From positions 2,415 to 26,414 of the forward strand of contig DASXSF010000014.1 of the NCBI GenBank assembly GCA_036506155.1: a stretch of DNA of 24,000 bases, read 5' to 3'. Source of the DNA: Jatrophihabitantaceae bacterium. GTDB taxonomy: Bacteria; Actinomycetota; Actinomycetes; Mycobacteriales; Jatrophihabitantaceae. The position numbers and the translations under genes are program-made. The notes beneath the pieces are model-generated. The model ran no database searches. It was not told where the DNA came from and worked only from the letters and a program-made list of their open reading frames with translations. Positions 1 through 21,753 of this stretch are shown piece after piece. Within the stretch, counting starts at the first letter, position 1; every line of letters starts with the position of its first letter.

Positions 1-2118
1 CCGGCGGCACGGCTGCGGGTGAAGCTGGCGGACCGGTCACCGCGGCAGACGAATCCCTTATTGAGCCTGTTGTCGCAGCTTCTGGAACTTGCCGCAAGCC
101 GGGTCACCGCGACGCAGATCCTCGACCTAGTCGGGGCAGCGCCGGTGCGGCGGCGATTCGGCTTCGATGCCGACGACATCGAGCGATTGCGTGACTGGAC
201 GGTCGCCGCGAACGCTCGCTGGGGACTGGACGCCGAGCACCGTCGCGCGTACCAGCTGAGCAACATCACTCAGGGCACCTGGCGGTCGGCGCTCGACCGG
301 CTCCTACTCGGCGTCGCGATGGAAGAAGGCGTGACCTGGGTCGGCGACACGCTGCCGCTGGACGACGTCGACAGCTCCGACATCGACCTTCTGGGTCGCT
401 TCGCGGAACTCATCGACCGCGTCGACCGAGCCATCCGCGCGTTTAGCGAGAGGCACACCGCGTCGCAATGGGCGCGGCTGCTCGACGACGTGGTCCGCGG
501 TCTGGGCGAGGAAGACCAACCATGGCAGGGCATTCACCTGCAGCGTGAGCTCGGCGAGGTCGCCATGAACGCCGCGGACGCCGATGTCGAGCTCAGCCTC
601 GCGGATATCACCGAACTGCTGCGCGAGCGTCTCGCGGGCCGGCCGACCCGCGCCAGCTTCCGCACCGGCACGCTCACGGTCTGCACGCTCGTCCCGATGC
701 GATCGGTGCCGCACCGGGTGGTCTGCCTGCTCGGCATGGACGATGGCGCGTTTCCGCGGCAGAGCATCGCCGACGGCGACGACGTGCTGGCCCGCGAGCC
801 CCGAACCGGTGAACGCGATGTCCGCAGCGAGGATCGCCAGTTGTTCCTCGACGCGATCTGCTCGGCACAAGAACACTTGATCATCACCTATACCGGTACC
901 GATCCGCGCACGGGTGCCGACGTTCCGCCGTGCGTTCCGCTTAGCGAACTCCTCGACGCTGTCGACGCCACAGCCGTCGCGGCGGACGGCCGCTCCGCCC
1001 GCGATCATGTGATCGTCAGGCACCCGCTGCAACCATTTGATCCACGCAATTTCCTACCGGGCGAGCTGGGAACGCCTCGGCCGTTCTCGTTCGACCCGTC
1101 CGCGCTCGCCGGAGCTCGCGCCGCGGTGCAGCCGAGGACACAGCCGCCCCCGCTTGTTGCGGATCGACTGCCGAATGCTCCGGCCAGCGAAACCGTCAGC
1201 CTGGACGACCTCGTCCGGTTCTTCCAGCACCCGGTGCGTGGCTTCCTCCGTCAGCGTCTGGACATCAGCACCGCTGCCGAAGAAGAGGATCCGGCGGACG
1301 CTCTCACGGTGGAGCTCGACGGCCTTTCGGGGTGGGCGGTCGGTGACCGCGTACTGCAGCAGTGCCTGGCCGGCACGCCGCGACAGACAGCTGCCCGTCT
1401 GGAGCGCCTCCGTGGTGAGCTGCCGCCCGGGCCGCTGGGGACACGGGCCATGCGCGAGATCGGGAGCCGCGTCGACGCGCTGCTGCACGCGTCCGAACTC
1501 GAACGGGCGGACCCAGCAGAATCGGTCGACGTCGCCGTGCCGTTGAGTGACGGACGTACCGTGTCCGGAACGGTCGGCGGCGTCCGCGGCTCGACAATCC
1601 TGGCGGTCACGTACTCGACGCTTGCGCCCAAGCATCGGCTTACAGCCTGGCTGCGTTACCTGGCCATGGTGGCCGCAAGCGGTGACGCCGATTATCGAGC
1701 CGTCACAGTCGGCCGGCGCAGCGACGACGCGCGCCGCTCGATCCTGCACGGAGTCCAGCCGGACATCGCCCGGCGACTGCTCGAACTGCTCGTTCGCATC
1801 CGCGACGCCGGCCTGCGCGAGCCGCTGCCGCTCGTGCTCGAAACTTCCGAGGAGTACGCCACCCGGCGCTCACACGGCGCCATGATCGACGACGCGATCC
1901 CGGCTGCCCGCACGCGCTGGGAAGCCGACCGGTTCCGGCCCGAGCGCGACGATCCCGCGCACGTCCTCGTCTTCGGAGCGAACGCCCCGTTCGCGCGACT
2001 CAACGCTGGCCCGCCGCTCCCCGATGAATGTTTCCCGGACGAACCCACGAGGTTCGGGGCGCTCGCCCGGCTCGTTTGGCAACCGCTGGTCACGGCCGAG
2101 ATCGAGGTGCGGCCGTGA
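1..2118 (+). CDS. recC: Exodeoxyribonuclease V gamma subunit RecC, C-terminal ~705 aa (5' end outside window)
   Basis: Frame 1 is open from nt 1, so the GTG at 19 is not the true start. RecC-like sequence such as LTVCTLVPMRSVPHRVVCLLGMDDGAFPR. Stop TGA 2116-2118 overlaps the recB GTG (GTGA). Gene order is recC-recB-recD. Confidence 0.9.
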   Translation, partial: PAARLRVKLADRSPRQTNPLLSLLSQLLELAASRVTATQILDLVGAAPVRRRFGFDADDIERLRDWTVAANARWGLDAEHRRAYQLSNITQGTWRSALDRLLLGVAMEEGVTWVGDTLPLDDVDSSDIDLLGRFAELIDRVDRAIRAFSERHTASQWARLLDDVVRGLGEEDQPWQGIHLQRELGEVAMNAADADVELSLADITELLRERLAGRPTRASFRTGTLTVCTLVPMRSVPHRVVCLLGMDDGAFPRQSIADGDDVLAREPRTGERDVRSEDRQLFLDAICSAQEHLIITYTGTDPRTGADVPPCVPLSELLDAVDATAVAADGRSARDHVIVRHPLQPFDPRNFLPGELGTPRPFSFDPSALAGARAAVQPRTQPPPLVADRLPNAPASETVSLDDLVRFFQHPVRGFLRQRLDISTAAEEEDPADALTVELDGLSGWAVGDRVLQQCLAGTPRQTAARLERLRGELPPGPLGTRAMREIGSRVDALLHASELERADPAESVDVAVPLSDGRTVSGTVGGVRGSTILAVTYSTLAPKHRLTAWLRYLAMVAASGDADYRAVTVGRRSDDARRSILHGVQPDIARRLLELLVRIRDAGLREPLPLVLETSEEYATRRSHGAMIDDAIPAARTRWEADRFRPERDDPAHVLVFGANAPFARLNAGPPLPDECFPDEPTRFGALARLVWQPLVTAEIEVRP

Positions 2119-5100
2119 CCGACGCAAGGTTCGATCTCCTCGGTGAGCTGCCGCGCGGGACGACGGTCCTCGAGGCGAGCGCGGGAACGGGCAAGACGTT
2201 CACGATCGCCGGTCTGATGACCCGCTACGTCGCCGAGGGCGTGGTACCGCTCGACGAGTTGCTCGTCGTGACGTTCGGGCGCGCCGCGACCCAGGAGCTA
2301 CGCGACCGGGTCCGGGAGCGGCTGGTCACGGCTCGCGACGGGCTGCGTGACGTAGCGGCCGCGCGAGCCGGGGACGACCAACTGCTTCGCCACCTCGCAA
2401 CCGGCAGTGACAGCGACGTGGACAGCAGGCGGCAGCGGCTGGTCGCGGCGCTCGCCTCATTCGATGCCGCCACGGTCGTCACGACACACCAGTTCTGCCA
2501 GCAGATGCTCATCGGGCTGGGCACGGCGGGAGACGTCGACGCACACTCCGTGTTGGTGGAGAACCTCGACGACCTCGTCACCGAGGTCGTGCAGGACCTG
2601 TACCTGCGCAAGTGGGGACACGGCGATGTGCTCGATCCGCCGATGAACCTGAAGACCGCGCAGGAGCTGGCCCGGACCGTCGTGGAGGACGGGCAGGCCA
2701 TCCTCGTGCCCGATGTAGACGACGACAACCTGGCTGGGTTGCGGGTGCGGTTCGCCCACGCCGTCCGGGACGAAGTCGACCGTCGCAAACGCGCGCGCCG
2801 CGTGCTCGGCTTCGACGATCTGCTCACCCGCCTGCAGCAGACACTCGCTGACCCGCAGACCGGTCCAGCCGCCGTGGCACGACTACGCGGCCGCTATCGC
2901 ATTGTCCTGGTCGACGAGTTCCAGGACACCGATCCGGTGCAATGGGACGTCTTGCGCATGGCATTCCACGGCGCGGCGACGCTGGTGCTCGTCGGCGACC
3001 CCAAGCAGGCGATCTACGCCTTTCGCGGTGCCGATGTGCAGGCTTACCTTGCCGCCGCTGAGCTGGCCGATCACCGGGCGACGCTTGGCCAGAACTGGCG
3101 CAGCGACCCGGATCTGCTACGCGGCCTCGATGCGCTGTTCCGCGGCGCGGCGCTCGGCGACCCGCGGATCGTGGTGGGGCCGGTGTCCGCCGCGCATGCA
3201 GGTCGGTCGCTGGAGAGCGCCGAAGCGCCCGTGCGTGTCCGGCTCGTGCAGCGGGAGGGCAGTGAGACGCCCGGCGTCGACACCGCGCGACGCCTCGTGG
3301 TTCAGGACGTCGTGCGTGAAGTGGTCGGACTGCTGAACAGCCAAAAGACCCTGCACCCGCGGGAGAACACACCCGGCCGCCCGCTACGACCCGCGGACAT
3401 CGCCGTGATTGTCCGCACCAATGCGCAACTCGACCTGGTCCACGAGGCTTTGCTCGCGGCCCGCGTCCCGTCCGTGCGACGCACGACATCGAGCGTCTTC
3501 CGGACCTCTGCGGCAGGCGACTGGATCGTGCTGCTCGAAGCGCTGGAGCAGCCCCACCGCTCCGGCCGCCTGCGCCGACTGGCGGTATCACCGTTCGTGG
3601 GGTGGGATGCGGCGGCACTGGAGGGCAACGACGTCGACGAACTCGGGCTCCGGTTGCGGCACTGGCTGCGGATGTACGAGGAGCGCGGGGTTGCCGCTCT
3701 GCTCGAGACGATCACGCGCGACGAACGTCTGCCGGAAAGGCTGCTCGGTCAGGTCGACGGCGAGCGCCGGCTGACCGACCTTCGCCATGTGGCTGAGGCA
3801 CTGCATGCCGCATCGATGACCGGGCAGTTAGGCCTGACGGCTGGACTGGAATGGCTTCGACACCGTGTCGAGGAGGCCGAAGAGGACTCCTCGGTCGAGC
3901 GGGGGCGCCGACTCGACTCGGAGGCGGCCGCGGTGCAGGTCGTCACCGTCCATGCGAGCAAGGGTCTGGAGTTTCCGGTCGTCCTGGCGCCGTTCGGGTG
4001 GGACAAGCATGTGTTCGATCCGGAAATTCCGCTGTTCCACGAGGAGAGTTCCGGCCGGCGCGTCCGAAACGTGGGCGGGCGAAACAGCCTCGGCTTCCGG
4101 CATGACCAGGCCCGCCACCGGAACGAGGAATTCGGCGAGGATCTGCGACTGCTCTACGTCGCGCTCACCCGGGCGCAGTCGCAGGTGATCACCTGGTGGG
4201 CGCCTAGCACGCGAAACACCGTCTGTGCACCGCTGCACCGTCTGCTCTTCACCGAGTCACCGGCGAACGGAGTGCCGGAGCGCAGGCAAGTTCCGAGCGA
4301 CTCGAGGGCTCTCGCCGGAGCTTCGGCGCTTGCCGTGCGCGGCTGCCTGTCGGTGTCGGTGGCGTCCGGGGGCGCGCTGTCGTGGGAGCAGCCGCCGACG
4401 GTGGCGAGGGCGCTGTCGGCAGCGACCCTCGGCCGTCTGCTGGACACCTCGTGGCGGCGCACCTCGTACACCGCGCTGACCGCAGCAGTGCACGATGCCG
4501 CTCCGGCCGTCGCCTCGGAGCCAGAGGTTGATCAGAAGGACGACGAGCCGATAACGGCTATGCCGGCGGCCGCACCGGGCGATCTCCACGACGTGATATC
4601 GCCGATGGATGCGCTGCCTGGCGGCACCGCATTCGGGACGATCGTCCACGCCGTGCTGGAAAACGTCGACCCGACCTCCGCCGATCTTGCCGGCGCGGTC
4701 AGTGAGCAGGTGGCGGCGCAACTGTCCTGGTCAGGGTTGGCCGAACTGGATCATGACCAGCTGACTGCTGCCCTGCTTCCGGCGCTGCGTACACCCCTCG
4801 GAGACATCGTCGACGGTCGCACCCTCGCCGACATCGCGCCGCAAGATCGGCTCACCGAGCTCGACTTCGAGTTGCCGGTGCGGGGCGGTGATCGTCCGGA
4901 TGGGACGTCCCGGCTGGTCGAGCTTGCCGACCTGCTGCACGAGCATCTACGGACCGACGACCCGCTTGCGGGATACGCCGACCTGCTCAGCGATCCTGTC
5001 CTGAGCGAGGTGGTGTTCAAGGGCTATCTCGCTGGCAGCATCGATGCGGTCCTGCGTGTGGATGGCCGCTACGTCGTCGTCGACTACAAGACGAACCGGC

Positions 5101-5411
5101 TCGGCGTGCCGGATGCGCCACTGACCGCGTGGGACTACCGAGTCACCGCGATGGCCGAGGCAATGATCCAGGCGCACTACCCGCTGCAGGCGCTGCTGTA
5201 CGACGTGGCCTTGCACCGGTTCCTGCGTTGGCGACTTGCCGACTACGACCCGGCCCGGCACCTAGGCGGAGTGCTGTACCTGTTTCTGCGCGGGATGTGC
5301 GGCCCGGACATCCGGTTTGCCGACGGCACCATCCCCGGGGTGTTCGCCTGGCAGCCGCCGGCGACCCTGGTGACGGCAGCGTCCGACCTCCTCGCAGCGG
5401 GCCGACGATGA
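2115..5411 (+). CDS. recB: Exodeoxyribonuclease V beta subunit RecB (UvrD-like helicase + PD-(D/E)XK nuclease), ~1098 aa
   Basis: Start taken as GTG 2115 (VTDARFDLLGELPRGTTVLEASAGTGKTF) rather than the ORF-track ATG 2028, which lies inside recC. Walker A is ASAGTGKTF and motif II is VLVDEFQDTD. The C-terminal nuclease motif is GSIDAVLRVDGRYVVVDYKTN. Confidence 0.92.
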   Translation: MTDARFDLLGELPRGTTVLEASAGTGKTFTIAGLMTRYVAEGVVPLDELLVVTFGRAATQELRDRVRERLVTARDGLRDVAAARAGDDQLLRHLATGSDSDVDSRRQRLVAALASFDAATVVTTHQFCQQMLIGLGTAGDVDAHSVLVENLDDLVTEVVQDLYLRKWGHGDVLDPPMNLKTAQELARTVVEDGQAILVPDVDDDNLAGLRVRFAHAVRDEVDRRKRARRVLGFDDLLTRLQQTLADPQTGPAAVARLRGRYRIVLVDEFQDTDPVQWDVLRMAFHGAATLVLVGDPKQAIYAFRGADVQAYLAAAELADHRATLGQNWRSDPDLLRGLDALFRGAALGDPRIVVGPVSAAHAGRSLESAEAPVRVRLVQREGSETPGVDTARRLVVQDVVREVVGLLNSQKTLHPRENTPGRPLRPADIAVIVRTNAQLDLVHEALLAARVPSVRRTTSSVFRTSAAGDWIVLLEALEQPHRSGRLRRLAVSPFVGWDAAALEGNDVDELGLRLRHWLRMYEERGVAALLETITRDERLPERLLGQVDGERRLTDLRHVAEALHAASMTGQLGLTAGLEWLRHRVEEAEEDSSVERGRRLDSEAAAVQVVTVHASKGLEFPVVLAPFGWDKHVFDPEIPLFHEESSGRRVRNVGGRNSLGFRHDQARHRNEEFGEDLRLLYVALTRAQSQVITWWAPSTRNTVCAPLHRLLFTESPANGVPERRQVPSDSRALAGASALAVRGCLSVSVASGGALSWEQPPTVARALSAATLGRLLDTSWRRTSYTALTAAVHDAAPAVASEPEVDQKDDEPITAMPAAAPGDLHDVISPMDALPGGTAFGTIVHAVLENVDPTSADLAGAVSEQVAAQLSWSGLAELDHDQLTAALLPALRTPLGDIVDGRTLADIAPQDRLTELDFELPVRGGDRPDGTSRLVELADLLHEHLRTDDPLAGYADLLSDPVLSEVVFKGYLAGSIDAVLRVDGRYVVVDYKTNRLGVPDAPLTAWDYRVTAMAEAMIQAHYPLQALLYDVALHRFLRWRLADYDPARHLGGVLYLFLRGMCGPDIRFADGTIPGVFAWQPPATLVTAASDLLAAGRR

Positions 5412-7291
5412 CGTCCCTTCACGTCGCGCGAGCCGCCGGTCTGCTCGGTGTATTCGACCAGGCGGGCATCCTCGCCCCGGCCGATGTACACGTCGCAATG
5501 CGACTTGGCGCGCTGACCGGCGAGAACGACGACCGAGTGCTCCTCGCGATCGCGCTGACCGTTCGCAACACCAGGCATGGCTCGGTTGTCCTCGACCTCG
5601 CCGACGCAGCCACGACCGTCACAGCGGATGCGGACGATTCGGAACTGATCGAGAACGGCGAGCTGTCCTGGCCTGCTCCCGAGGAGTGGATCGCCGCCTG
5701 CGCAGCAAGTCCGGTTGTCGCTGACGCCCCGGGCGGTTCACCTGTGCGTCTCGTCGGCTCCCGTCTCTGGCTGGATCGCTACTGGCGCCAAGAGGCCCAG
5801 GTCGCCGAGGAGCTCTTGCATCGAAGCGCGCAGCGCCCGGCCGATCTCGACCTGGCCGTCCTCGGCTCCGATCTGGAGTCCCTGTTCAGCAGCACGTCGG
5901 ATGCCGACCAGCGCCTGGCCACCTGCGTCGCTGCATTGTCGCGGGTCAGCGTCATCGGCGGCGGACCGGGCACCGGCAAGACAACAACCATAGCGCGGCT
6001 GATCACAGCGCTTCGCCGGCAGCGCCCCGAGCTTCGCATCGCACTCGCCGCCCCTACCGGCAAGGCGGCAGCCCGGCTGGAGGAGGCGGTGCGATCGGCC
6101 AGCGGATCGCTTACCGCCCACGACCGCGGGCAGCTCGCGGGCATGTCCGCCTCCACGCTGCACCGCCTGCTCGGCCGGCGCCCGGGCGTCGCCAGCCGCT
6201 TCCGCCACGACCGGGAGAACCGACTGCCGTTCGACGTGGTGATCGTCGACGAGGCCTCGATGGTGTCGTTGACCCTGATGGCACGGCTTCTCGAGGCGCT
6301 TGCCCCGCCGGCTCGCCTCGTTCTCGTCGGCGACCCCGATCAACTCGCCTCCGTCGAAGCCGGTGCCGTGCTCGGTGATCTCGTGGAACACGACGACGTG
6401 GGCCGCCGCACCGAGTCCTTTCGCGCCATGCTCCAGGAAGCGATCCCTGGCCTGGACTGTCCCGTGCGCCAGAGCACACCCGCAGCGGCGCTTCGGGAAT
6501 CAGTAGCACTGCTGCGGACCGTGCACCGCTTCGGGGCCGGCGGACCGATTGCCCATCTGGCAGAGCACGTCCGGGCTGGCCGCGCCGATGAGACACTCGC
6601 CCTGTTGACCGATCCACCAGACGGCATAGCGTTCCACCTGACGCCCGACGACGAACCAGTGTCCGGTGCCGCACTGGAGGCCCTGCGCGGACAACTCGTG
6701 CACGAGAAGGCGGTCATCGACGCGGCCCGATCGGGAGACGTCGAGCATGCGCTCGATGCACTGGAACGTCATCGCATGCTCTGCGCACACCGCGCCGGGC
6801 CGCGCGGGGTGCGGCACTGGAGCGACGCCATCGAACGCTGGCTGGCCGCGGACGATCCATTGCTGACGCCGCGCCTCGACGGGCGATACGCCGGGCAGCC
6901 GCTGCTCGTGACGTCAAACGACTACGAGAACAGCCTTTACAACGGCGACACCGGCGTCGTCATAAACCAAGGCGATGAACTTGCCGCCGCCTTTCGCCGC
7001 GGCGGCGAGCCGGTCATCCTGCCGCTAGTGCGGTTGTCCGAGGTCCGCCCGATGCACGTGATAACCGTGCATCGCGCGCAAGGAAGCCAATTCGAGGAAG
7101 TCACCGTGCTACTCCCCCCAGCAACCTCGCCCCTCGCGACCCGCCAGACCTTCTACACCGCGATCACCCGCGCATCGAAGCTCGTCCGCCTGATCGGCTC
7201 GCAAGAGGCCGTCCTCGCCAGCGTCAACAGGCGAGCCGCAAGAGCGACCGGTCTGCGCGACCGCCTCGCAGGCCGCCTGGGAGCAGCTTAG
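5408..7291 (+). CDS. recD: Exodeoxyribonuclease V alpha subunit RecD (SF1 helicase), ~627 aa
   Basis: ATG 5408 overlaps the recB stop (ATGA, 5408-5411). N-terminus is MTSLHVARAAGLLGVFDQAG. Walker A is GGGPGTGKTTT, Walker B is VVIVDEASMV, and the late helicase motif is ITVHRAQGSQFEEV. The ORF-track start at 5129 lies inside recB. Confidence 0.92.
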   Translation: MTSLHVARAAGLLGVFDQAGILAPADVHVAMRLGALTGENDDRVLLAIALTVRNTRHGSVVLDLADAATTVTADADDSELIENGELSWPAPEEWIAACAASPVVADAPGGSPVRLVGSRLWLDRYWRQEAQVAEELLHRSAQRPADLDLAVLGSDLESLFSSTSDADQRLATCVAALSRVSVIGGGPGTGKTTTIARLITALRRQRPELRIALAAPTGKAAARLEEAVRSASGSLTAHDRGQLAGMSASTLHRLLGRRPGVASRFRHDRENRLPFDVVIVDEASMVSLTLMARLLEALAPPARLVLVGDPDQLASVEAGAVLGDLVEHDDVGRRTESFRAMLQEAIPGLDCPVRQSTPAAALRESVALLRTVHRFGAGGPIAHLAEHVRAGRADETLALLTDPPDGIAFHLTPDDEPVSGAALEALRGQLVHEKAVIDAARSGDVEHALDALERHRMLCAHRAGPRGVRHWSDAIERWLAADDPLLTPRLDGRYAGQPLLVTSNDYENSLYNGDTGVVINQGDELAAAFRRGGEPVILPLVRLSEVRPMHVITVHRAQGSQFEEVTVLLPPATSPLATRQTFYTAITRASKLVRLIGSQEAVLASVNRRAARATGLRDRLAGRLGAA

Positions 7292-7360
7292 GCCGACGTG
7301 CTGCCACGCGCGGCGGCTATCTAGTCGGGGAGGAGTGTCAACGCCTCGACGTGGCGTGGC

Positions 7361-9884
7361 CTACCGCCGTCGGGGGTCGGGGAAGCCGAGACGAACGTAG
7401 CCGGGCGCGCGCTTCGCTAACGATGAGGCGAGCACGCCGGTGCGGGCGTCGTGGTAGTCGTGGACCTCCGCCGTCTCCTTGCCTGGATGTGCTCGCAGGA
7501 TGCGCCCGACGTACTGCTCGAGCGGGGCTTTGAAGGCGATGGGTGCGGTGAGGAAGAGGGTGTCCAGCGCGGGGCAGTCGAAGCCTTCGCCGATGTAGGA
7601 GGCGGTTGCAACCGCCAGCAGCGGTTGTCCTTCGGACGGTTTGGTGAGCCTGGCTAGGGCGGCGGCTCGCGCTCTGGCGCCCATTCCGCCGCGCAGCAAG
7701 ACCGGATCGTGCCCGTGTTCGCGGAGCGCGGCGTCGAGGCGTTCGAGATGGGTAGTCCATCGGGTCAAGACGAGGCAGTTGCGGCCGCGGGCGAGTGCGT
7801 CGAGGACGTCGTCGACGATCTGCCGGTTGCGGTCCTCGTCCGCGGCAAGGTCGCGGTAGACGGCCGGCATGCCGCCCGGCGCGGACGGCTCGATGCTGCC
7901 GTTGTAGGTGAACGCGGTTGAGTGGACCTGCAAGACGGGGTGCGGTGGGGCGAGCTCGGTGGATCGGCTGGTCAGCGTGCCAGGTTCCGGGGGCCTCATC
8001 GTGTATCGGGCCGGCCCGAGCTGCAGCCCGATGAGATCGTCGAGTTGGTCGCGCCGGTACGGGGTCGCGGTCAGGCCGATCCAGCGTCGGGCCGGGATCT
8101 GCTTGACCGCACGCTCGAATGCTGCGGCGGGTACGTGGTGGCATTCGTCGACGACGACAAGCCCGTAGCCAGCCGTTAACGCGCGGATGTCGTCGTGGCG
8201 GACCAGCGATTGCAGCATGGCGACATCGACGGTGCCGCGGGTCTTCCTGCGTCCGCCGCCGAGCTGCCCGGCGTTGACTCCAAGGTGTTCGGCGAGCCGG
8301 CTGCGCCACTGGTCGGCCAGGGCTTTCCGGTCGACGAGCACCAAGGTTGTGGTTGCGTGCCGCGCGATGAGCGCGCAGGCGATGACCGTCTTTCCGGCAC
8401 CGGGGCGGTGCGACGAGAACGCCGAGGTCGTGTCCTGCCAGGGCGTCGACGGCGGCCTGCTGCGCGGGTTCGAGGATCGCCGCCGACTCGTACTCTCTGT
8501 CTGTTCCGGTGCTGCGTTCGTCGATGATCTCCAATCGGCTTCCTGCCTGCATTGCCACGTCGCCGAGCCGGTCGAGCAACCCGCGGGGTAGTACGAGGCT
8601 GCCGTCGAGGGTTTCGTCATAGTTGACGAGGAACCGGGGCACGTTCCATGTGGAGGCACGTAGGCGCTGCCGTTCGTAGAACACCGGGTTTGGCATCGAG
8701 GCGGCATGCTTGAGGGTCGCGGCCAGTGCCGGTGTGAGGTCTGCGCCGTGAACAGTGACGCCGGCGCCCAGGCGAACGTGCACGATGGGCGGGATCTGTG
8801 GGACGGTGCGGGTCGCGGTCGGCTCCGCGAGCCGGGTTACCTCGGCGCCGACGGCGACGCGGCCGAATCGCCCGACGAGCCGCTTTGCCTCTCGCGGGGT
8901 CAGGCGAGGCAGGCTGGACAGATACGCCCACTGGTCGGCGAACGGTTCCAGTGTGGCGACGTCGAGGAACACCGTCGCCCCGTGATCGCGGTGGTGGCGA
9001 TGCAGCGGCGCAGCGATCAGGTTGCCGATACTGCCGGTGGCAGGCAGCACGTCCTGCGACGGGAACAGCCGGTCATAGCTCGTCAGACTCATGTGGCCGC
9101 GGATGGACATTGCCTCGCGGAGTAGCCCGGTCCCGATCTGGCGGGCGGTGCTGGCCGGCACCGCTGTGCTGAAGAAGATCCACACATGCGCGCCCGTGCC
9201 CGAGCGAGAGACCTCCAACCCAGTGGCCACCCCCGCCGCGTGGGCTGCCTTCAGGTAGGCCAGGGCATCCAGCATCGCCGTCCGTCCGTCGAAGTCGGCG
9301 GCCAGCCACCAGCAGAGGTCCCCGTCCAGCAACGGGTACAGCCCGATCTCCGTCCCCCCCGACAGGTGCGCCACAACCACGTCGTCAGTCAGCGGCAGGT
9401 AGTCGCGGCGCGCGGCATCCTTGTGCCAACGGCCACGAACGGCGGGCATCCAGCCCGACCTGCCCGTGCGCCGGTTCTCCCACCGGACCGCGTACACGTC
9501 CGCGCGCGCGGCGAACAACGCTCGGTAGAAGGCGACCTTCTTCTCCGACGACGACCCGTTGTCCACCGAACCCGGCGGTGCGTCGAAGATGCCGGTCTGC
9601 GTCGGACCTGGCAGCCGCGCCTCACCGGGGCGCAGATCGAGCAGCCGCTGCAACCGAGCGTTCTCGGCCCGAAGTCGGTCCAATTCGGCGTACAGCGCAA
9701 CCGCGTCGCTCCCGTCGGCACCGCCTCGCGCATTCCACCCGCCGCGCACGTCGGCCACGCTATGCACCCGAGACCCATCGACGGCAGCGGCTCCGCGGCG
9801 AACCCGATCCTTTATGCGGCGGATCACCGATCCGGCGACTTGCCGCGAGGCAGGGACAGGACCACTCAGCGAATTTCCACCCAT
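7361..9884 (-). pseudogene. AEP (primase-polymerase) domain fused to DExH/XPB-like SF2 helicase, interrupted by a +1 nt frameshift at the G4 run 8402-8405 (about 840 aa if repaired)
   Basis: Protein-like sequence passes from the frame of ORF 7338..10034 to the frame of ORF 7361..8707 at ...GVLVAPP|[15 protein letters not shown] motifs are WWLAADFDG, SRSGTGAHVWIFF and SYDRLFPSQD. Helicase motifs are [23 protein letters not shown] and QYVGRILR. The total length 2524 nt equals 3n+1. The start is uncertain: ATG 9884 is the most upstream plausible one, and several in-frame GTGs lie downstream. Confidence 0.75.
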
Positions 9885-9897
9885 CCACAGTTCTCTA

Positions 9898-9934
9898 CAG
9901 CGGTACCTTGCCGTGAATCGGGCGTCCACCGCTG
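9898..9934. promoter_or_regulatory. Inverted repeat CAGCGGT-N23-ACCGCTG in the 59-bp divergent gap between the AEP-helicase and integrase genes
   Basis: Perfect 7-bp arms at 9898-9904 and 9928-9934 in the only intergenic space available for both promoters. The function is inferred, not demonstrated. Confidence 0.3.
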
Positions 9935-9943
9935 CCGGTCGGA

Positions 9944-11065
9944 ATGCACGGCCGGATCGACTTTCATCATGCCGGGTTGGGGCGAGTTCGGGCCCGTACA
10001 AGGGTCCGTGGCGCTGATGGCGTGCTGCGGGCAATCACGCGTTGGGGTGGCAGCGAAGCAGAGGCCGATGCAAGGTTAATGGTCGCGGTACGCGAGCAGG
10101 CCTGCCAGAACGACGGAGTACTGGCCGCCCACACCCGGCTCACCTCGGCCACGCAGGTCTGGCTGAGCGAGCTGGCGCGGTCCGAGCTGGCCGCCAGCAC
10201 TCGGCAGCTGTACCAGGCTGCGGCCCGCTGCTACCTGATTCCCACGCTCGGGTCGCTGTGCATCGGTGAGCTCACCGTCACGGTCATCGAACGCGCGCTG
10301 GCGTCGATCCGATCCCAGCATGGGCCGCAGCCCGCGCGGCCCGCACGCCGAGCCCTGTCGAGTCTGGGCCACTGCGCCGTGCGCCACGGTGCGCTGCCAG
10401 TCAACCCGGTGCGCGACACCCGCCCGATCGCCTGCCCGCGCAAACGGGTCCGAGCGCTCACCGTTGGCGAGGCCGCCGAGGTGCTGGCACGGCTGCGCGC
10501 CGATCCGACCGCCCTCCGGCTGGACCTGCCCGACTTCGTGGAGTTCATGCTGGGCACCGGCGTGCGCATCGGCGAAGCTTGCGCAATCCGTGAAGCAGTT
10601 CTGGACCTCAAGGCCGGCACCGTGCACATCAACGCCACCGTGGTCCGCGTCGACGGCGTCGGGCTGGAGATCCAGCCACGGACCAAGACCGCCCGATCCG
10701 AACGGATCTTGCACTTGCCGCCACATCTCCTGCGTATGCTCAGGCGGCGCCCGCTTAACGGCCACCCGCCAGGACCGGCTGGGGTCAACTTCACCTCCCC
10801 CGGGCTGATCCGCGACCCGTCCAACACCCAGGCCGACCTGCGCCAGGCCCTTGACCGTGGCGGCTACCCGTGGGTGAGCAGCGACGTCTTCCGCAAGACC
10901 GTCGCATCTCGCCTCGACGACGAGGGCTACGGCATCCGCCATATCGCCAACCAGCTCGGGCACAGCCGACCGTCAACCACGATGGACTACTACCTCGGCC
11001 GGCGTGCGCTCACCACGATCAACTTCTCCCGCGCGCTCGAGCCGCTCTTAGCCGCGAGTGAGTAA
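9944..11065 (+). CDS. int: Tyrosine recombinase / phage-type site-specific integrase (373 aa from ATG 9944)
   Basis: Box I Arg in LGTGVRIGEACAI. The C-terminal catalytic region is VSSDVFRKTVASRL...IANQLGHSRPSTTMDYYLGR (R, H, Y present). The N-terminal RVRGADGVLRAITRWGGSEAEADARL resembles the arm-binding domain of actinobacterial integrases. The exact start is uncertain. Confidence 0.85.
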   Translation: MHGRIDFHHAGLGRVRARTRVRGADGVLRAITRWGGSEAEADARLMVAVREQACQNDGVLAAHTRLTSATQVWLSELARSELAASTRQLYQAAARCYLIPTLGSLCIGELTVTVIERALASIRSQHGPQPARPARRALSSLGHCAVRHGALPVNPVRDTRPIACPRKRVRALTVGEAAEVLARLRADPTALRLDLPDFVEFMLGTGVRIGEACAIREAVLDLKAGTVHINATVVRVDGVGLEIQPRTKTARSERILHLPPHLLRMLRRRPLNGHPPGPAGVNFTSPGLIRDPSNTQADLRQALDRGGYPWVSSDVFRKTVASRLDDEGYGIRHIANQLGHSRPSTTMDYYLGRRALTTINFSRALEPLLAASE

Positions 11066-11066
11066 G

Positions 11067-11099
11067 TGGTTCGTTTATGGTTCGTTTCTGGTTCGCACC
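11067..11099. repeat. Three tandem 11-bp repeats TGGTTCGTTTA / TGGTTCGTTTC / TGGTTCGCACC
   Basis: Read directly. The array begins 2 nt after the integrase stop (TAA 11063-11065) and ends 29 nt before the tRNA-derived segment. The period is 11 bp, one helical turn. Confidence 0.7.
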
Positions 11100-11127
11100 C
11101 ACGGGCGCGGACTAGAATCCCCTTATA

Positions 11128-11170
11128 TGGTGGGCCCCGAGGGACTCGAACCCTCAACCTACGGGTCGAT
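11128..11170 (-). other. Orphan tRNA 3' half (variable arm + T arm + acceptor 3' strand + encoded CCA): att-site remnant, not a functional tRNA
   Basis: The minus strand reads ATCGACCCGTAGGTT-GAGGG-TTCGAGT-CCCTC-GGGGCCC-A-CCA, a canonical T stem-loop with a 7-nt acceptor strand, discriminator A and CCA. A stem-forming extra arm (GACC/GGTT) suggests a type II, Leu-like tRNA. No complementary GGGCCCC 5' acceptor strand and no anticodon stem-loop can be folded in the next 100 nt. Confidence 0.7.
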
Positions 11171-11259
11171 CTTCTGCCTTCGCCGCGAGCATCTTTGGCC
11201 TATTTTACTTGGGTATTCGCGTCGCCAGCGGCCCCGAATCACTCTGGCAGGCGGCATTT

Positions 11260-11280
11260 CATGTCACGTTCCATGTCACG
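11260..11280. repeat. Direct repeat CATGTCACG x2 (12-bp spacing), each preceded by TTC
   Basis: tTTCATGTCACGtTCCATGTCACG read directly in a non-coding, lower-GC stretch. Function unknown. Confidence 0.4.
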
Positions 11281-11566
11281 CGAGCTGCACCGGGTAAGCC
11301 ATCGACACCACAGCGTCTGGCGCTCGGCGCGGGCTCGTCGCTGGTCGTCGAAATCATCTCCGGTTCGACATGGAATCCGCAGACTGTCAGTGTCGGTCGC
11401 ACCAGTGGGTGAGACCTGCCCGCTGGGCGCAGCGACGCTGCCGTCTGCGATGTCGCGGGCAGACTCTGCCAGGCCAGTAGAGCCAGAGCCGGCGGTGACC
11501 TCAATGCCGATCACGGTCGGTAGGACGCCGTGCCATGCGTTGGTGGTACCGCATGTTCTCGTTCTC

Positions 11567-11584
11567 CGCGCAGCGAACTGCGCG
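11567..11584 (+). terminator. GC hairpin CGCGCAG-CGAA-CTGCGCG followed by CTGTTGATT (intrinsic-terminator-like)
   Basis: Perfect 7-bp stem, tetraloop and a moderately T-rich tail on the plus strand. No intact upstream plus-strand gene other than int, 500 bp away. Confidence 0.3.
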
Positions 11585-11817
11585 CTGTTGATTCGCTGCC
11601 GGCGGAGCGGCGCTACGTAGGAACCGGACGGGGGAGGGTGGCCACCATGGGGCCACCCTTCGCGGTGGCGGCGACGCGTGATGTGTGTGAGCGCGGAAAC
11701 TAGGCATAACCCGGCCGCCGCAGGGCGCTGGTCCGCCGCCCGCAAGGGGATCCTCTGTGCGAGAGTCCGGATTCGAATGAAGGCGACCAAGGCTCCAGCG
11801 TTGCGCCTCTGTCGTGA

Positions 11818-12432
11818 TCACCTTGGTGGCTGGCGGCGTTGGGGGTAGATGGTTTCTTCCTGTTCGAGCATGGAGACGAACTGCTCGATCCGCCGGCGAC
11901 GGGTCTCGGCCCGCTTGGCGGTCTCGATGCGATACAAAACGGCGTAGCGGTTCTGGCCGCTGAGGGTCTTGAACATCTCCCGCGCGTCAGGATTCGCGGC
12001 GAGGGCCGCGGCGAGATCGGGCGGTACCGCGATGCTCGCCGGGCCGGCGTACGCGGCCTCCCAACGGCCGTCGGCCTTGGCCCGCTCGATCGCGGCTAGG
12101 CCGGACACATGCATGCGCCCCTCAGTGATCAACCGCTCGGCGATCGCGGCGTTGCGCTTCGACCACCCGCTGCGCGGGCCGCGTGGCGTGAAGCGCTGCC
12201 GGTAGCTGCGCTCGTCGCCACCGCGGACCTGCCCGTCGATCCAGCCGTGGCACAGCGCCTCCTCCAGCGCCTGGTCATAGGTGAGGCTCGTGGGCTCGGT
12301 CGCGCCCTTCTTCGCGAGAGTCAGCCACACACCGCTGTGATCACTGTGATGTTCCCGGAGCCACGCTCGCCAGGCGGCGGTGTCGTCGACCGTCAAGGGC
12401 GGTAACTCGCTTCCCACACTGCAACCTTGCAT
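11818..12432 (-). CDS. YdeI/OmpD-associated family protein (204 aa from ATG 12432)
   Basis: Family-typical WRAWLREHHSDHSGVWLTLAKKG...LTYDQALEEALCHGWIDGQVRGGDERSYRQRFTPRGPRSGWSKRNAAIAERLITEGRM...AKADGRWEAAY...ETRRRRIEQFVSML. The 98-aa N-terminal extension of the ORF (to 12726) is not family-like. Confidence 0.8.
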   Translation of the reverse strand: MQGCSVGSELPPLTVDDTAAWRAWLREHHSDHSGVWLTLAKKGATEPTSLTYDQALEEALCHGWIDGQVRGGDERSYRQRFTPRGPRSGWSKRNAAIAERLITEGRMHVSGLAAIERAKADGRWEAAYAGPASIAVPPDLAAALAANPDAREMFKTLSGQNRYAVLYRIETAKRAETRRRRIEQFVSMLEQEETIYPQRRQPPR

Positions 12433-12922: not shown

Positions 12923-13648
12923 CTAGCGGACCTCTAACTCGCGCACGCCGAGGTCGACGAGCTGGGTGCGGTACCGGTCGAGGCGGTGCGCATCTGGCTC
13001 CGGCCAGTGCCGCGCTTCGGCGCGCACCCCGTGCTGCCGGAAGCCGATGACCTTGATCCGCATCTGCGGGTCGAGGTCGAGCAGCCAGTCCACGGTCTGG
13101 GTGAGCGTCGGATGGTCATCATTGATGCCGGGGATGAGCAGCAGCCGCACCTCATAGAGCTTGCCGGCGGCGGCAACCTGCCGGATCGCGTCCAGCACTT
13201 GCGCGTTGCACGAGCCGGTGAGGTGCTCGTGCAGCGCCGGGTCGAGTGCCTTCAAGTCGAGCATGACGCCGTCGGTCACCGGAAGCAGCGACGTCCATGC
13301 GGCTGCCGGCGCCGCGCCGTTGCTGTCGATGAACCGGGTCAGGCCCGCCAGATCCGGGTCGGCACGCAGCGTGGTGAACATCGCTCGGACGAACTCCGCC
13401 TGCAGGGTCGCCTCGCCGCCGGAGACCGTCATGCCAGCGAGATATGGCGCTAACGGCCGCACCTCGTCGAGGACCTCGTCCACCTCCACCAGGCGCGCCC
13501 GTGGCGTATGCCGCGGGATCGTTTGCGGATTGTGGCACGCGAGGCAGTTGAGGTTGCAGCCCTGTAGGAACACGACGAACCGGTTGCCCGGGCCGTCCAC
13601 CCAGGAAAACCGGACGACGTCAGCCAGCAGGCCCTGCGGCGCTTTCAC
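12923..13648 (-). CDS. yjjW: YjjW-type glycyl-radical-enzyme activating protein (radical SAM), 241 aa
   Basis: RFSWVDGPGNRFVVFLQGCNLNCLACHNP carries the CX3CX2C cluster motif, in the same N-terminal context as PFL-activase-type proteins. TVSGGEATLQ is also present. The start overlaps the end of the upstream glycyl-radical enzyme gene by 29 nt. Confidence 0.9.
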   Translation of the reverse strand: MKAPQGLLADVVRFSWVDGPGNRFVVFLQGCNLNCLACHNPQTIPRHTPRARLVEVDEVLDEVRPLAPYLAGMTVSGGEATLQAEFVRAMFTTLRADPDLAGLTRFIDSNGAAPAAAWTSLLPVTDGVMLDLKALDPALHEHLTGSCNAQVLDAIRQVAAAGKLYEVRLLLIPGINDDHPTLTQTVDWLLDLDPQMRIKVIGFRQHGVRAEARHWPEPDAHRLDRYRTQLVDLGVRELEVR

Positions 13649-15173
13649 CGCTGATCACCCGCTTCGGCGTCCGGGCGTCGACATGGTTGTTCGCGACCGA
13701 GCCGGCGGCGAGCAAGGTGCTCTGATGGCGGGCACCCTCATCGGCGAGCTTGGCCAGATCCGACTTGCGAACGAGGTATCCGGTGATGCGAATGAAGTCG
13801 TTGCCGTCGAGGTTAAAGGTGAAGTCGCGCATGCCGGCCCGGAACGCGCCGCGGATCACGTCGACAATGGCTTGCGGGTTGCGCTTGGCGGTGTCGTCGA
13901 AGGCGAGCACGTCGCTGACGCCAGCGGCGAACCACTTGTGGTGCGGCGCGACGGTCATCAGGTGATCCGGCAGTGACGGCTCGGTGCCGATCGGGATGCG
14001 CGTGCCGGCCGTGACGTTCTGGTCGAGGTCGATGCCGGGCTGCGAGTGCAGGAAGCAGCGGCCGTCGTTGCCTGCGCAGTAGGGCATCGGGCGCGCTGCC
14101 ACAAGGTGCACGACGCGTTCAACGAGGCGATACGAGAGTTCGTTCGCAGCCTTGTCGTGGCCATAGCGTGCGTCTGGCCGACCTTCGCGCTCGATGAGCA
14201 GGTCCACGCCTTCGGCGAGCCCGAACAGACCGAACATGGCGGCGAAGTTGTCGAGCGAGATGAGTCCCTCATGGGTGAGCCAGTTGTGTTCGTAGAACCT
14301 CGCCTGCTCGACGAGGTACCTGATCCGCGACTCGGCCAGTTCCGCGGCGAGCTCGACGTACTTCGGCAGCGTCCGGGTCAGGAACGAGACCGCCCCACTG
14401 TCGTGCCGCAGCACGGCCTCCTTGAGGTTCAACCGCACGAGGGTGTGCGATCCGCCGCCGATCTTGAGCGAGTTGTAGCAGCTCACGGCGGCGTACCGCT
14501 CGCCGAGGTCGTGCGTCATCAACCGGTGCGATACGAAGTGCGGTTTGCCGCACGCGAACACGGTCTGGACGGCGTCCAGCAGGTAGCTGTCCGGCGTGCG
14601 CTCAGGGTCCACACGCAGCGTCAGGTTAGGCGCGACCTGCAGCAGTTCCCGCTCGAGACGCAGGATCGTCCGTCCCACCCGGCTGTCGTCCGGGCCGAGG
14701 TCGGTGTGCGTGAACGCGTCCGGGAACATCCTGTCCAGGCTGATCCAGAACAACCGCAGTCGGCGGTAGAGATCCGCGTCGCTCACACCTTCGATGTACG
14801 GCGCGAGCAGCGTGTCCAAGTCGCCGAGGTACACCGGGTAGCCGGTGATGGACGGCACATGGGTGCAGAGGATGAGCAGGAAGGCCAGCGCTTCGTCCAG
14901 GTCGCGGGCTGGCGGCAGTTCCAGGAACGCCGAGCCGTTGCGCAGCGCCACGATGTAGTCCGGTACCACGTAGCGCGGGCGGTACGGCGGGTTGCCCTCG
15001 TACATGTCGCAGATGACCCGCTTGTCGAGGGCCTGCGCGCACTCGTCCGAGACCGGCGGCGGATCCACCGCGTTCTCGGCCAGTGTGGCGAGCTTCTGGA
15101 CACGCTGGCGATAAGTCAGCGCCGGATCGTCGACGACGCCGCGGACCAAGGTTTGGAGCTCAGCCTTCTCCAT
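13620..15173 (-). CDS. yjjI: YjjI-family (DUF3029) glycine radical enzyme, 517 aa
   Basis: Length and gene pairing match E. coli YjjI/YjjW. The C-terminal glycyl-radical-type motif is NDFIRITGYLVRK (R-[IV]-x-G-[YF]). A Cys-containing loop reads MPYCAGNDGRCFLHSQPG. Confidence 0.88.
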   Translation of the reverse strand: MEKAELQTLVRGVVDDPALTYRQRVQKLATLAENAVDPPPVSDECAQALDKRVICDMYEGNPPYRPRYVVPDYIVALRNGSAFLELPPARDLDEALAFLLILCTHVPSITGYPVYLGDLDTLLAPYIEGVSDADLYRRLRLFWISLDRMFPDAFTHTDLGPDDSRVGRTILRLERELLQVAPNLTLRVDPERTPDSYLLDAVQTVFACGKPHFVSHRLMTHDLGERYAAVSCYNSLKIGGGSHTLVRLNLKEAVLRHDSGAVSFLTRTLPKYVELAAELAESRIRYLVEQARFYEHNWLTHEGLISLDNFAAMFGLFGLAEGVDLLIEREGRPDARYGHDKAANELSYRLVERVVHLVAARPMPYCAGNDGRCFLHSQPGIDLDQNVTAGTRIPIGTEPSLPDHLMTVAPHHKWFAAGVSDVLAFDDTAKRNPQAIVDVIRGAFRAGMRDFTFNLDGNDFIRITGYLVRKSDLAKLADEGARHQSTLLAAGSVANNHVDARTPKRVISGESAAGPAG

Positions 15174-20311: not shown

Positions 20312-20425
20312 TACGGATCGGCCTAAGACCGGCGCGCGCAACTGCCGAAACGCCCGTCGGCTGACGCCGTGTTCGTCGCGTGGGCGCTCGATGTTCTGTT
20401 CGATGAACGTGCCGGTCAGAGTCGC
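20312..20425 (-). pseudogene. AraC/XylS-family HTH fragment (about 38 aa, no start, no ligand-binding domain)
   Basis: The minus strand reads (stop)-PATLTGTFIEQNIERPRDEHGVSRRAFRQLRAPVLGRSV. This resembles the first HTH of AraC regulators (FIExNL...GxSxRxLxRLFxxxxGxS). The frame is closed by TAA just upstream and loses sense downstream. Confidence 0.3.
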
Positions 20426-20442
20426 CGGTTACGGTAAATGCT

Positions 20443-21753
20443 GTGCCGGCGCGGTGGAGCGTTGATCAGGTGCTGGCGCTTGCGCCGGACGCTGCGTCGG
20501 CGGCTGCGGCCAGGAAGGTGGCTGCGGCGGTCGTGTGGATGGGCGCTGGTTGCGTGAGCGGACTCGTCTGGGGCCGCTATGTCGGTTCCGGAACGTTGCG
20601 TTACGAGACGGTGGTTGAGCCGGGCGTTCCGGCCTACGGGTGTTCCTGTCCGTCGCGGAAGTTCCCGTGCAAGCACGCGCTGGGGTTGCTGCTGCTCTGG
20701 TCCAGTGGCGACGTGCCGGACGCCGACGAGCCGGCCGACTATGCCGTCGCTTGGCAGCAGGCTCGGGCGGAACGAGCAGCGGCGACGGCTGCGCGACCGA
20801 GAGGCGAGCGGGACGAGGAGGCGGCGGCCAGGCGCGCCGCGCGGCGTCGTGAGCGCGTAACGGTCGGTCTGGCCGAGCTGGAACTGTGGCTCTGCGACCA
20901 GGTTCGGAGCGGACTGTCAGGGGTGTCCGGCACCTACTGGCACGCCGAGCCGGCGGCCGCCCGGATGGTGGACGCCCAGGCTCCGGGTGTGGCGGCGACG
21001 CTGCGGCGACTCAGCGCGGTACCGGCGTCGGGCGAGGGCTGGCCGCAGCGCCTCCTCGCTGGCTATGCGCGTGTTCATCTGCTCGCTCGGGCGCACACGC
21101 AACTCGACACGCTGCCGCCCGACCTCGCGGCGACGGTCCGCAACTACGTCGGCTATTCGGTCAGCCGGGAAGCGGTTCTAGCCGAGCCGGCAGTGCGAGA
21201 TCAGTGGCTTGTCGTCAGCGTCCGAGACATTGCGGACGCGGCTATTCCGGCTCGCCGCACGTATCTGCGCGGCGACAAGACTGGCCGGTGGGCGCTCGTC
21301 CTCGCGTTCGACCCGCAAGGCCAGTTCGGCGGCGACCTCGACGCCGCGTTCGAGGCCGGGACGGCGCTGGATGCCGAGCTGCACTACTACCCCGGCCGTC
21401 CGCCGTTGCGGGTTGCGGTCGGGGCTCGGCACGGCGAACCGGTTGCCGGTCCGCCGCCGCAGCCGCGGCGCCGCCTCAGCGAACTGTTCGACGAGTGGGC
21501 CACCGTGCTGGCCCTCGACCCGTGGCTTCCGGAGTGGCCGACGGTGCTGTGCGGTGTCCCGGTGCCCTGTGAACCGAGGTGGCGATTCGCCGACGAGACC
21601 GGAGCATCGGTGCCGCTGCAGACCGGTGGCATCGACCCATGGATCCTCGCGGCCGTCTCAGGGGGCGCCCCGGTCACCGCCGCGGGCGAATGGTCGGCCG
21701 ACGGATTCCGCCCATCGACGGTGTGGCACCGCGAAACGGCGGTGCCGCTGTGA
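20443..21753 (+). CDS. SWIM zinc finger family protein, 436 aa
   Basis: N-terminus is ARWSVDQVLALAPDAASAAAARKVA. The SWIM motif is YGCSCPSRKFPCKHALGLLLLW (CxCx6CxH). The stop overlaps the next gene's GTG (GTGA 21750-21753). Confidence 0.88.
   Translation: MPARWSVDQVLALAPDAASAAAARKVAAAVVWMGAGCVSGLVWGRYVGSGTLRYETVVEPGVPAYGCSCPSRKFPCKHALGLLLLWSSGDVPDADEPADYAVAWQQARAERAAATAARPRGERDEEAAARRAARRRERVTVGLAELELWLCDQVRSGLSGVSGTYWHAEPAAARMVDAQAPGVAATLRRLSAVPASGEGWPQRLLAGYARVHLLARAHTQLDTLPPDLAATVRNYVGYSVSREAVLAEPAVRDQWLVVSVRDIADAAIPARRTYLRGDKTGRWALVLAFDPQGQFGGDLDAAFEAGTALDAELHYYPGRPPLRVAVGARHGEPVAGPPPQPRRRLSELFDEWATVLALDPWLPEWPTVLCGVPVPCEPRWRFADETGASVPLQTGGIDPWILAAVSGGAPVTAAGEWSADGFRPSTVWHRETAVPL

Follow-up and report, generated by a model that had tools for sequence, protein, structure and literature searches.

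We analysed a 24,000-nt stretch of DNA (hereafter, the window) from contig DASXSF010000014.1 of a Jatrophihabitantaceae bacterium, in which a gene for a primase-polymerase fused to a helicase-like ATPase lies on the minus strand between recD and a divergent integrase gene, and is split by one extra base. By its sequence, this actinobacterial gene belongs to the IS-excision enhancer family (IEE; IS, insertion sequence), the "Z1568-like" AEP family of the Prim-Pol clade, fused to an XPB/RadD-like superfamily 2 (SF2) ATPase. Two overlapping minus-strand open reading frames (ORFs), 7338..10034 (898 aa) and 7361..8707 (448 aa), are both present in the ORF list, and the sequence confirms the initial annotation in that the protein-like reading passes from the former to the latter at a run of four G (8402–8405 on the plus strand; C4 on the coding strand). 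The coding strand reads GCA CCG CCC C GGT GCC GGA AAG from 8411 to 8390, and deletion of one G restores a single open frame from the TTG of the 898-aa ORF (10034) to the stop at 7361, in agreement with the 1-nt frameshift in the P-loop that had been proposed. The lesion separates Pro452 from Gly453, four codons upstream of the Walker-A residue Lys456 (8390–8392).

The phase of GC content at third codon positions (GC3) among the codon positions flips at ~8350–8430, and the coding signal fades above ~9700. Because of this GC3 switch, the helicase profile matches, and the purifying selection downstream of the lesion (see below), the two ORFs are regarded as one broken gene and not as a chance overlap. 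The true start is the GTG at 9758, not 9884 or 10034, since the coding signal ends at ~9700 and an intact ortholog (P0001, 90% identical) shares the opening VADVRGGW and the length of 798 aa. The repaired gene accordingly spans 7361..9758 on the minus strand (798 codons; TAG at 7361–7363). The sizes estimated initially for the repaired protein (~840 aa) and for the part before the lesion (~545 aa) were too large, the values being 798 and 452 residues, and the out-of-frame read-through at the beginning of the 448-aa ORF is present as described, with a length of ~101 rather than ~95 residues.

The repaired protein consists of consecutive parts on the minus strand. An N-terminal helix (aa 20–41, ...LYAELDRLRAENARLQRLLD; 9636..9701), defined in a 24-sequence alignment that includes E. 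coli IEE and predicted as helical over residues 17–40 in a low-confidence model, precedes the AEP domain (aa 73–292; 8883..9542), which matches PF22548 and carries the motif A DFD at 9288–9296, the motif B His191 at 9186–9188, and the motif C Asp229 at 9072–9074. A central conserved region (aa 293–428; 8475..8882), colinear with residues ~300–417 of IEE and containing invariant columns from P356 to R375, leads to a predicted XPB/RadD-like SF2 DNA-dependent ATPase domain (aa 429–798; 7361..8474), with Walker A, DECHH (8135–8149), TAT, and motif VI, which is out of frame below 8402.

Relationship to E. coli IEE

In a Pfam search, the repaired protein matched PF22548 ("AEP-TOTE"; E = 3.1e-74, profile positions 1–228 of 230), with ResIII (3e-24) and Helicase_C (2e-5) following the AEP domain, so that all of the families anticipated for a fusion of an AEP primase-polymerase and an XPB-like SF2 helicase were found. 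Partial, sub-threshold matches in NCBIfam to XPB (79 bits; cut-off, 610) and RadD (63 bits; cut-off, 720), with ~160 residues aligned, are in line with the same architecture, and the best PADLOC model was that of CRISPR-associated PrimPol (5e-75). The AlphaFold2 model calculated from the repaired protein and 23 close homologs was too poor for a fold search (mean predicted local distance difference test score, 55.6; predicted template modelling score, 0.34), with most of the AEP and central regions below 50, and a profile of the family was therefore searched against the sequences in the PDB. This search retrieved Marinitoga Prim-Pol (PDB IDs: 7NQD, 7NQE, and 7NQF; E = 4e-14) and, with the C-terminal half, XPBII (1e-29), RadD (9e-23), and UvsW (1e-11); the same Prim-Pol, XPBII, RadD, and UvsW structures are given as HHpred templates for IEE in a preprint (bioRxiv 10.1101/2023.06.07.543989). 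The C-terminal half shares its motif set with XPB, RadD, and UvsW, its best solved relatives, and has in common with them the ATPase core alone; it is here fused to a polymerase, and its scores lie far below the equivalog cut-offs. Several database homologs carry the name "TOTE conflict system AEP domain-containing protein", and this name and PF22548 show that the label given in the initial annotation was correct.

The family had also been described there as having no experimentally defined function, which is wrong, since the repaired protein matches the characterised E. coli IEE from end to end. The reference used was ECs_1305 of the E. coli O157:H7 Sakai chromosome, annotated as "IS-excision enhancer IEE". 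In BLASTP, residues 6–773 of the repaired protein (query of 779 aa) were aligned with residues 9–775 of IEE (786 aa) at 36% identity and 52% positives (E = 1e-153), and IEE matched the same three Pfam families (PF22548 at 1.7e-98).

The catalytic residues were examined in the 24-sequence alignment against those published for IEE. Asp155 and Asp157 of the DFD motif (IEE Asp142 and Asp144), His191 of SRSGTGAH (His178), Asp229 of SYD (Asp216), and Tyr141 (Tyr128), the Tyr that replaces the ribose-sensing His, are all invariant. Lys456 of GAGKT corresponds to IEE Lys451, with Gly455–Lys456–Thr457 invariant, as are DECHH, TAT, and QxxGRxxR (Gln748, Gly751, Arg752, and Arg755). The AEP motifs named initially, including SYD as the candidate for motif III, and QxxGRxxR thus coincide with the published residues of IEE. 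SF2 motifs I, II (DExH), III, and VI are all present and conserved after removal of one G; in the sequence as it stands, the reading frame is lost at the codon that precedes motif I.

Outside the catalytic motifs, the core of the N-terminal helix, LRAENARL (aa 29–36; 9653–9676, minus strand), is kept from Actinobacteria to E. coli IEE, where it is aligned with ELAALRAENARLVSLLE. In the alignment, Glu32, Asn33, Arg35, Leu36, and Leu40 are invariant, and Leu29, Arg30, and Ala34 nearly so. This segment, initially called a coiled coil, could have a role in partner binding or oligomerisation. A block in the central region, PNPxFY..Q..R.S.W..PR (~8574–8738, minus strand; aa ~341–395), is likewise invariant and common to IEE; no Pfam family matched residues 293–428.

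Altogether, the likeness to IEE extends over the length of the repaired protein (798 vs 786 aa), the order of the LRAENARL helix, AEP domain, central region, and SF2 ATPase, the Pfam families, and the colinear alignment, with all catalytic residues kept, including the Tyr in place of the ribose-sensing His. Both genes are also located on tRNA-associated integrase islands, that of IEE being SpLE1. The differences are the level of identity (36%), the host of the window gene (a high-GC actinobacterium), the size of the island, which is tiny here (integrase and IEE-like gene, with or without a toxin-antitoxin pair) and 86 kb in SpLE1, and the frameshift in Walker A; an activity on IS elements would be attributed to the window protein by homology only.

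The extra base in the Walker A region

The intact ortholog in a related metagenome locus (L001) is in frame at the lesion site, reading GCT CCC CCG GGC GCG GGA AAG. In comparison with this ortholog, the ratio of nonsynonymous to synonymous substitution rates (dN/dS) was 0.132 in the stretch preceding the lesion (452 codons) and 0.152 in the stretch following it (346 codons), where no further stop is found. Where the 22 other members are invariant, private changes of the window protein number two ahead of the lesion and one beyond it. The downstream columns concerned are 137, and the single change there lies within the range of intact homologs (0–4). The helicase half thus shows no drift, and since purifying selection persists downstream of the lesion nearly as upstream, the extra base is either very recent or a sequencing error.

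An error of sequencing or assembly in the short homopolymer at 8402–8405, with the gene intact in the organism, would account for the open downstream frame, the similar dN/dS values, and the sole private substitution downstream. It would also agree with the frame breaks found at scattered positions in 8 of the 84 other loci surveyed (see below), most of which are metagenome-assembled genomes in which some breaks may be assembly errors. A run of four bases is, however, short for an error of this type, decayed copies of the IEE-like gene are common elsewhere, the other long genes of the window are unbroken (recB, 1127 aa; recD; the YjjI and DUF5691 genes, which match their full profiles), so that the assembly does not look error-prone, and the element surrounding the gene is itself degraded, with a truncated tRNA gene and the far attachment (att) site missing. 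Because of the unbroken genes and the degraded element, we lean toward a real and recent lesion, and consider an artefact possible but rather unlikely. Programmed frameshifting and phase variation were ruled out, because intact orthologs are in frame at this position and the other breaks are scattered and not site-specific.

Roughly one related locus in ten is affected: frame breaks were seen in L038, L041, L054, L063, L064, L069, and L075, the last of which is an isolate genome, and stray gene fragments were seen at L012:6451–6940 and L032:52–468. Decay of the IEE-like gene is common elsewhere in the family.

The tRNA-Lys integrase island and the settings of related genes

The window contains, in order, recC, recB, recD (ending at 7291), the IEE-like gene, the divergent integrase gene, ~750 nt without recognisable genes, and a gene for an OmdA-domain protein. 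The block at 7351..11164 is common to five metagenome loci (L001, L091, L092, L095, and L096) at 80–87.5% nucleotide identity, in which the orthologs of the IEE-like protein are 86–91% identical. On the recD side, homology with the related islands ends at 7351, 10 nt past the stop codon of the IEE-like gene, and recD ends 60 nt further, the junction segment lying at 7292..7360. An intergenic region of 185 nt (9759..9943) separates the IEE-like gene from the apparently intact tyrosine recombinase/integrase gene (9944..11065, plus strand; PF00589, 2.3e-13), whose product is 81.6% identical to the L001 integrase over 370 aa in a single high-scoring segment pair. In L096, a higBA pair is inserted in this intergenic region, splitting the homology into 7351–9785 and 9917–11164.

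Just after the integrase stop codon, three direct repeats (GGTTCGTTT, GGTTCGTTT, and GGTTCGCAC; 11068..11098, plus strand) are spaced by 11 nt. These GGTTCG(T/C) repeats are kept, three in number and with the same spacing, in L001, L091, L095 (both copies), and L096, and are candidate arm-type integrase-binding sites. They are followed by the 3′ part of a tRNA-Lys gene (37 nt; 11128..11164, minus strand), the att core, comprising the CCA end, the acceptor strand, and the T-arm up to the anticodon stem. No tRNA gene was detected by ARAGORN in the whole window, only these last 37 nt being left. In L001, L091, and L092, an intact tRNA-Lys(TTT) gene adjoins the integrase end, beside murB. Both the break point of the tRNA gene in the window (CCTACGG|) and its T-arm variant are identical to those of the internal att of a tandem array in L095.

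This array (L095:1–7739), located at tRNA-Lys, contains integrase-1, an IEE-like gene, vapBC, two small genes (one encoding a zinc-binding-domain protein), a tRNA 3′ fragment, and integrase-2, the last being 84% identical in DNA to the window integrase gene. The vapBC pair and the far att copy of the relatives are missing from the window, in which the tRNA core is unique. An intact attL/attR pair was ruled out, as no flanking direct repeat was found in 7000–11900 and the tRNA core occurs once in the window. Because only a 37-nt tRNA fragment is left, with neither vapBC nor a far att copy, what the window retains is a truncated piece of a small island with a tRNA-Lys-specific tyrosine integrase, reduced to the block of the integrase and the IEE-like gene.

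The sequence from 11165 onward could be either the end of another tandem element or rearranged chromosome. Its first ~650 nt (11165–11817) have a slightly lower GC content (0.64) and no convincing coding signal; this segment had no Pfam match and no similarity to any of the fetched loci, and may be either decayed DNA or the terminus of a further integrated element. L001, the locus of the closest ortholog, also carries decayed second copies at 13436–14101 and 20327–20796, with arsenic-resistance genes in between; they consist of integrase remnants and of the opening 109 codons of an IEE-like gene fused directly to an arm/att-like piece. These remnants show that insertion at tRNA-Lys, followed by decay, has occurred more than once. 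No near-identical match to the 3.9-kb block was found in plasmid DNA, an Rfam scan covering the entire window gave no match, a promoter and terminator scan of 7200–11900 gave nothing above the shuffled background, and no island signature was found in base composition.

To place the gene in its family, 84 loci with relatives were surveyed (80 from species genomes and four from metagenomes), and the two nearest neighbours on each side were scanned, giving 149 upstream proteins in 118 Pfam families and 137 downstream proteins in 138. No conserved neighbour family was found around these 84 relatives. The commonest neighbours belong to toxin-antitoxin systems: AbiEi/AbiEii, VapBC/PIN, DUF433/DUF5615, MNT-type nucleotidyltransferases, HigBA/XRE, and ParE. 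The family gene is therefore a stand-alone gene in variable, island-like settings. The absence of partner genes, as stated initially, holds across the family, but not in the window, where the divergent integrase gene and the att-like tRNA-Lys fragment travel with the gene. No adjacent integrase was found in relatives at 83%, 76%, and ~70% identity, only two of the 84 loci have a related integrase within 10 kb, and the 25 Pfam families met most often among the two nearest neighbours on each side do not include that of the integrase. The linkage is therefore a feature of the closest clade (at least 87% identity) and not of the whole family.

A full-length homolog occurs in none of 50,697 phage records, in which the helicase half alone finds matches, consistent with this not being a prophage replication gene. 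Full-length homologs are found in 97 plasmid records, those listed being mostly large (78–940 kb), and of three plasmid regions inspected, the two with replicon typing have their own typed replicon. On the conjugative plasmid pDSHI03 of Dinoroseobacter shibae (L007:5229–13898), the homolog lies between a gene for a strawberry-notch-type methylase/AAA_34 protein and three consecutive tyrosine recombinase genes, with genes for DUF736 and an error-prone polymerase nearby. In SpLE1, the neighbours of E. coli IEE are an integrase, AlpA, a DUF3987 protein, and a YagK-like protein.

Several other genes of the window were noted. The recC (partial), recB, and recD genes (19–7291, plus strand) adjoin the island remnant; this adjacency is seen in this window only and is probably coincidental, although recB and recC alleles affect transposon excision in E. 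coli, according to work cited in the Chandler preprint. A YjjI-family glycyl-radical enzyme and its radical S-adenosylmethionine activase, both full-length against their profiles, are encoded at 12923–15173 (minus strand). At 20443–24000 (plus strand), genes for a SWIM zinc-finger protein, a DUF5691 protein, and a MoxR-type AAA_5 ATPase form a run that continues past the window end and looks like a conserved multi-gene system.

Predicted activity and alternative roles

IEE is classified as the "Z1568-like" family in the Prim-Pol clade of AEPs (PMC9943667; PMC5862659), and its homologues in Actinobacteria were already reported in 2011. It raises the transposase-dependent excision of IS3, IS1, and IS30 family elements and the formation of adjacent deletions (Kusumoto 2011, as cited in bioRxiv 10.1101/2023.06.07.543989). 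According to biochemical work (PMC9943667), its AEP domain is a Mn2+-dependent, error-prone polymerase in vitro that tolerates strand dislocation, its C-terminal domain hydrolyses ATP in a DNA-dependent manner, an activity that K451A abolishes, with unwinding reported as undetectable, and the full-length enzyme joins 3′ overhangs sharing at least 4 nt of microhomology. In the same report, a protein truncated to the AEP domain still polymerises over short ranges, displaces strands with three-fold lower efficiency, and cannot support end joining, for which both domains are required. Mutations in the helicase motifs strongly lower the activity in vivo (bioRxiv 10.1101/2023.06.07.543989).

Homology with E. 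coli IEE predicts for the repaired protein an AEP domain that is a Mn2+-dependent, error-prone polymerase tolerant of primer/template dislocation, and an ATPase domain that binds duplex behind it, with DNA-dependent hydrolysis of ATP. The latter would let the enzyme pair two 3′ single-stranded ends on at least 4 nt of microhomology and then extend them. The in vivo substrates would be, as for IEE, intermediates of copy-out-paste-in transposases (IS3, IS1, and IS30 families), processed either through cleavage and subsequent end joining or through a strand switch in the copy-out step, with IS excision and adjacent deletions as the expected outcome. If the lesion is real, the product would consist of 452 aa with the AEP domain and central region and of a nonsense tail of ~355 aa. 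By analogy with the AEP-only truncation, such a product could polymerise short stretches; end synapsis would be lost, and from that truncation and the helicase-motif mutations the product is expected to be null for IS excision. The arrangement has functional analogues in Pol theta and LigD, in that a polymerase tethered to a helicase-like ATPase aids microhomology joining (PMC9943667; PMC11724360). The analogy is only functional, since the polymerase of Pol theta is of family A and unrelated in fold, and LigD lacks an ATPase and has ligase and phosphoesterase domains absent from the IEE-like protein.

It is probable, in our assessment, that the window gene is an IEE-family member with an IEE-like function (by homology), carried as cargo on a degraded integrase island and bearing a +1 frameshift. 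Several points weigh against this combined reading. IS excision is known from the E. coli protein alone, which is 36% identical, and would be extended to the actinobacterial protein by homology only, and the in vivo mechanism of IEE is itself disputed between microhomology-mediated end joining after double-strand cleavage and strand switching during copy-out. Pfam scans of the ORFs found no IS element in the 24-kb window, and a transposase of the probed types occurs within 10 kb in 7 of the 84 related loci, a count obtained with a small probe set and no background control; linkage between the gene and IS elements is not required, because IEE acts in trans. A defence-type role is still conceivable in view of the frequent toxin-antitoxin neighbours and the "conflict system" wording in Pfam, and the frameshift may not be real.

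The roles offered in the initial annotation, a replication initiator or a stand-alone defence protein, are not what the characterised IEE does, and the TOTE partners were not found. As a defence effector, the protein would sense or attack invading DNA such as a phage or plasmid, IS excision being a side effect. The TOTE name in Pfam and in the annotation of database (PGAP) proteins, the best PADLOC match (CRISPR-associated PrimPol, 5e-75), the neighbours enriched in AbiE, VapBC, DUF433/DUF5615, HigBA, and MNT/HEPN-type modules, and the variable, island-like contexts would all fit this role, and the removal of IS elements is itself an activity against mobile elements. However, toxin-antitoxin modules mark mobile islands generally, and a literature search found no report of phage protection for the IEE family. 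TOTE stands for TPR, OB, TBP, and Effector (PMC12458937, citing work from 2022), and the likeness to that system is an effector-type match at the level of the AEP domain in PF22548 only. Neither a TPR-OB fusion (no TPR, CSD, or S1 match) nor a TBP-domain gene was found in the scanned window ORFs, in the 25 commonest families of the 286 neighbour proteins (84 loci), or beside E. coli IEE in SpLE1; "TOTE" here is the name of a domain family and not of a system. Marinitoga CRISPR-associated PrimPol (CAPP; 7NQD and 7NQE) is the closest solved AEP by sequence profile and the closest PADLOC model, but it has no fused SF2 ATPase, and no Cas family was found in the window ORFs or the commonest neighbour families, no dedicated search for CRISPR arrays having been made. 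We regard a stand-alone defence role as unlikely.

It is also conceivable that the PrimPol-helicase primes and unwinds the excised integrase circle as a replication initiator, like pRN1 ORF904 or P4 alpha. The integrase and IEE-like genes move as one 3.8-kb block in two genomic settings, the latter gene is a constant cargo beside the integrase in the closest clade, and AEP-helicase fusions are described as typical replicases of mobile elements (PMC5862659; PMC11724360). Such a role is disfavoured, because the two typed plasmids inspected that carry a homolog have replicons of their own, the ATPase is an XPB/RadD-like SF2 and not SF3, DnaB, or MCM, and no Zn-finger or PriCT priming module of Pfam was found in the repaired protein. 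The last two points also separate the protein from pRN1 ORF904 and P4 alpha, as does its linkage to an integrase, which is not constant but confined to the closest clade. Besides, no unwinding by IEE is reported (PMC9943667), and a separate DUF3987 protein precedes IEE in SpLE1. We thus consider a replicase quite improbable. In a third role, the IEE-like enzyme, the one constant cargo of the very small (3.8–5.7 kb) tRNA-Lys island in this clade, would be a working part of the island and no passenger, for example copying the excised circle or resealing donor and target DNA by microhomology; equally, the island would be a vehicle spreading an anti-IS gene. Islands of this clade stack in tandem arrays and leave decayed copies behind. 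We give this role a slim chance; if true, it would make the island a minimal, self-sufficient integrative element of two genes, or a dedicated "genome-cleaning" vehicle.

Returning to the assignment of the gene to the IEE family, the family is already known, and the window gene adds a member to it. The window copy is degraded and probably inactive, and its own biological weight is small; the points of note are the small integrase-plus-IEE island of its clade and the universally conserved LRAENARL helix. The assignment also links two names for one family, in that actinobacterial proteins annotated as "TOTE conflict system AEP domain-containing protein" or "DEAD/DEAH box helicase" are full-length IEE homologs. 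Because the family is large, with at least 585 species genomes encoding a relative and more than 5000 protein clusters at E ≤ 1e-20 to the full-length query (some perhaps via the helicase half alone), IEE-type control of IS elements or microhomology joining may, by analogy with the E. coli enzyme, operate widely in high-GC bacteria.

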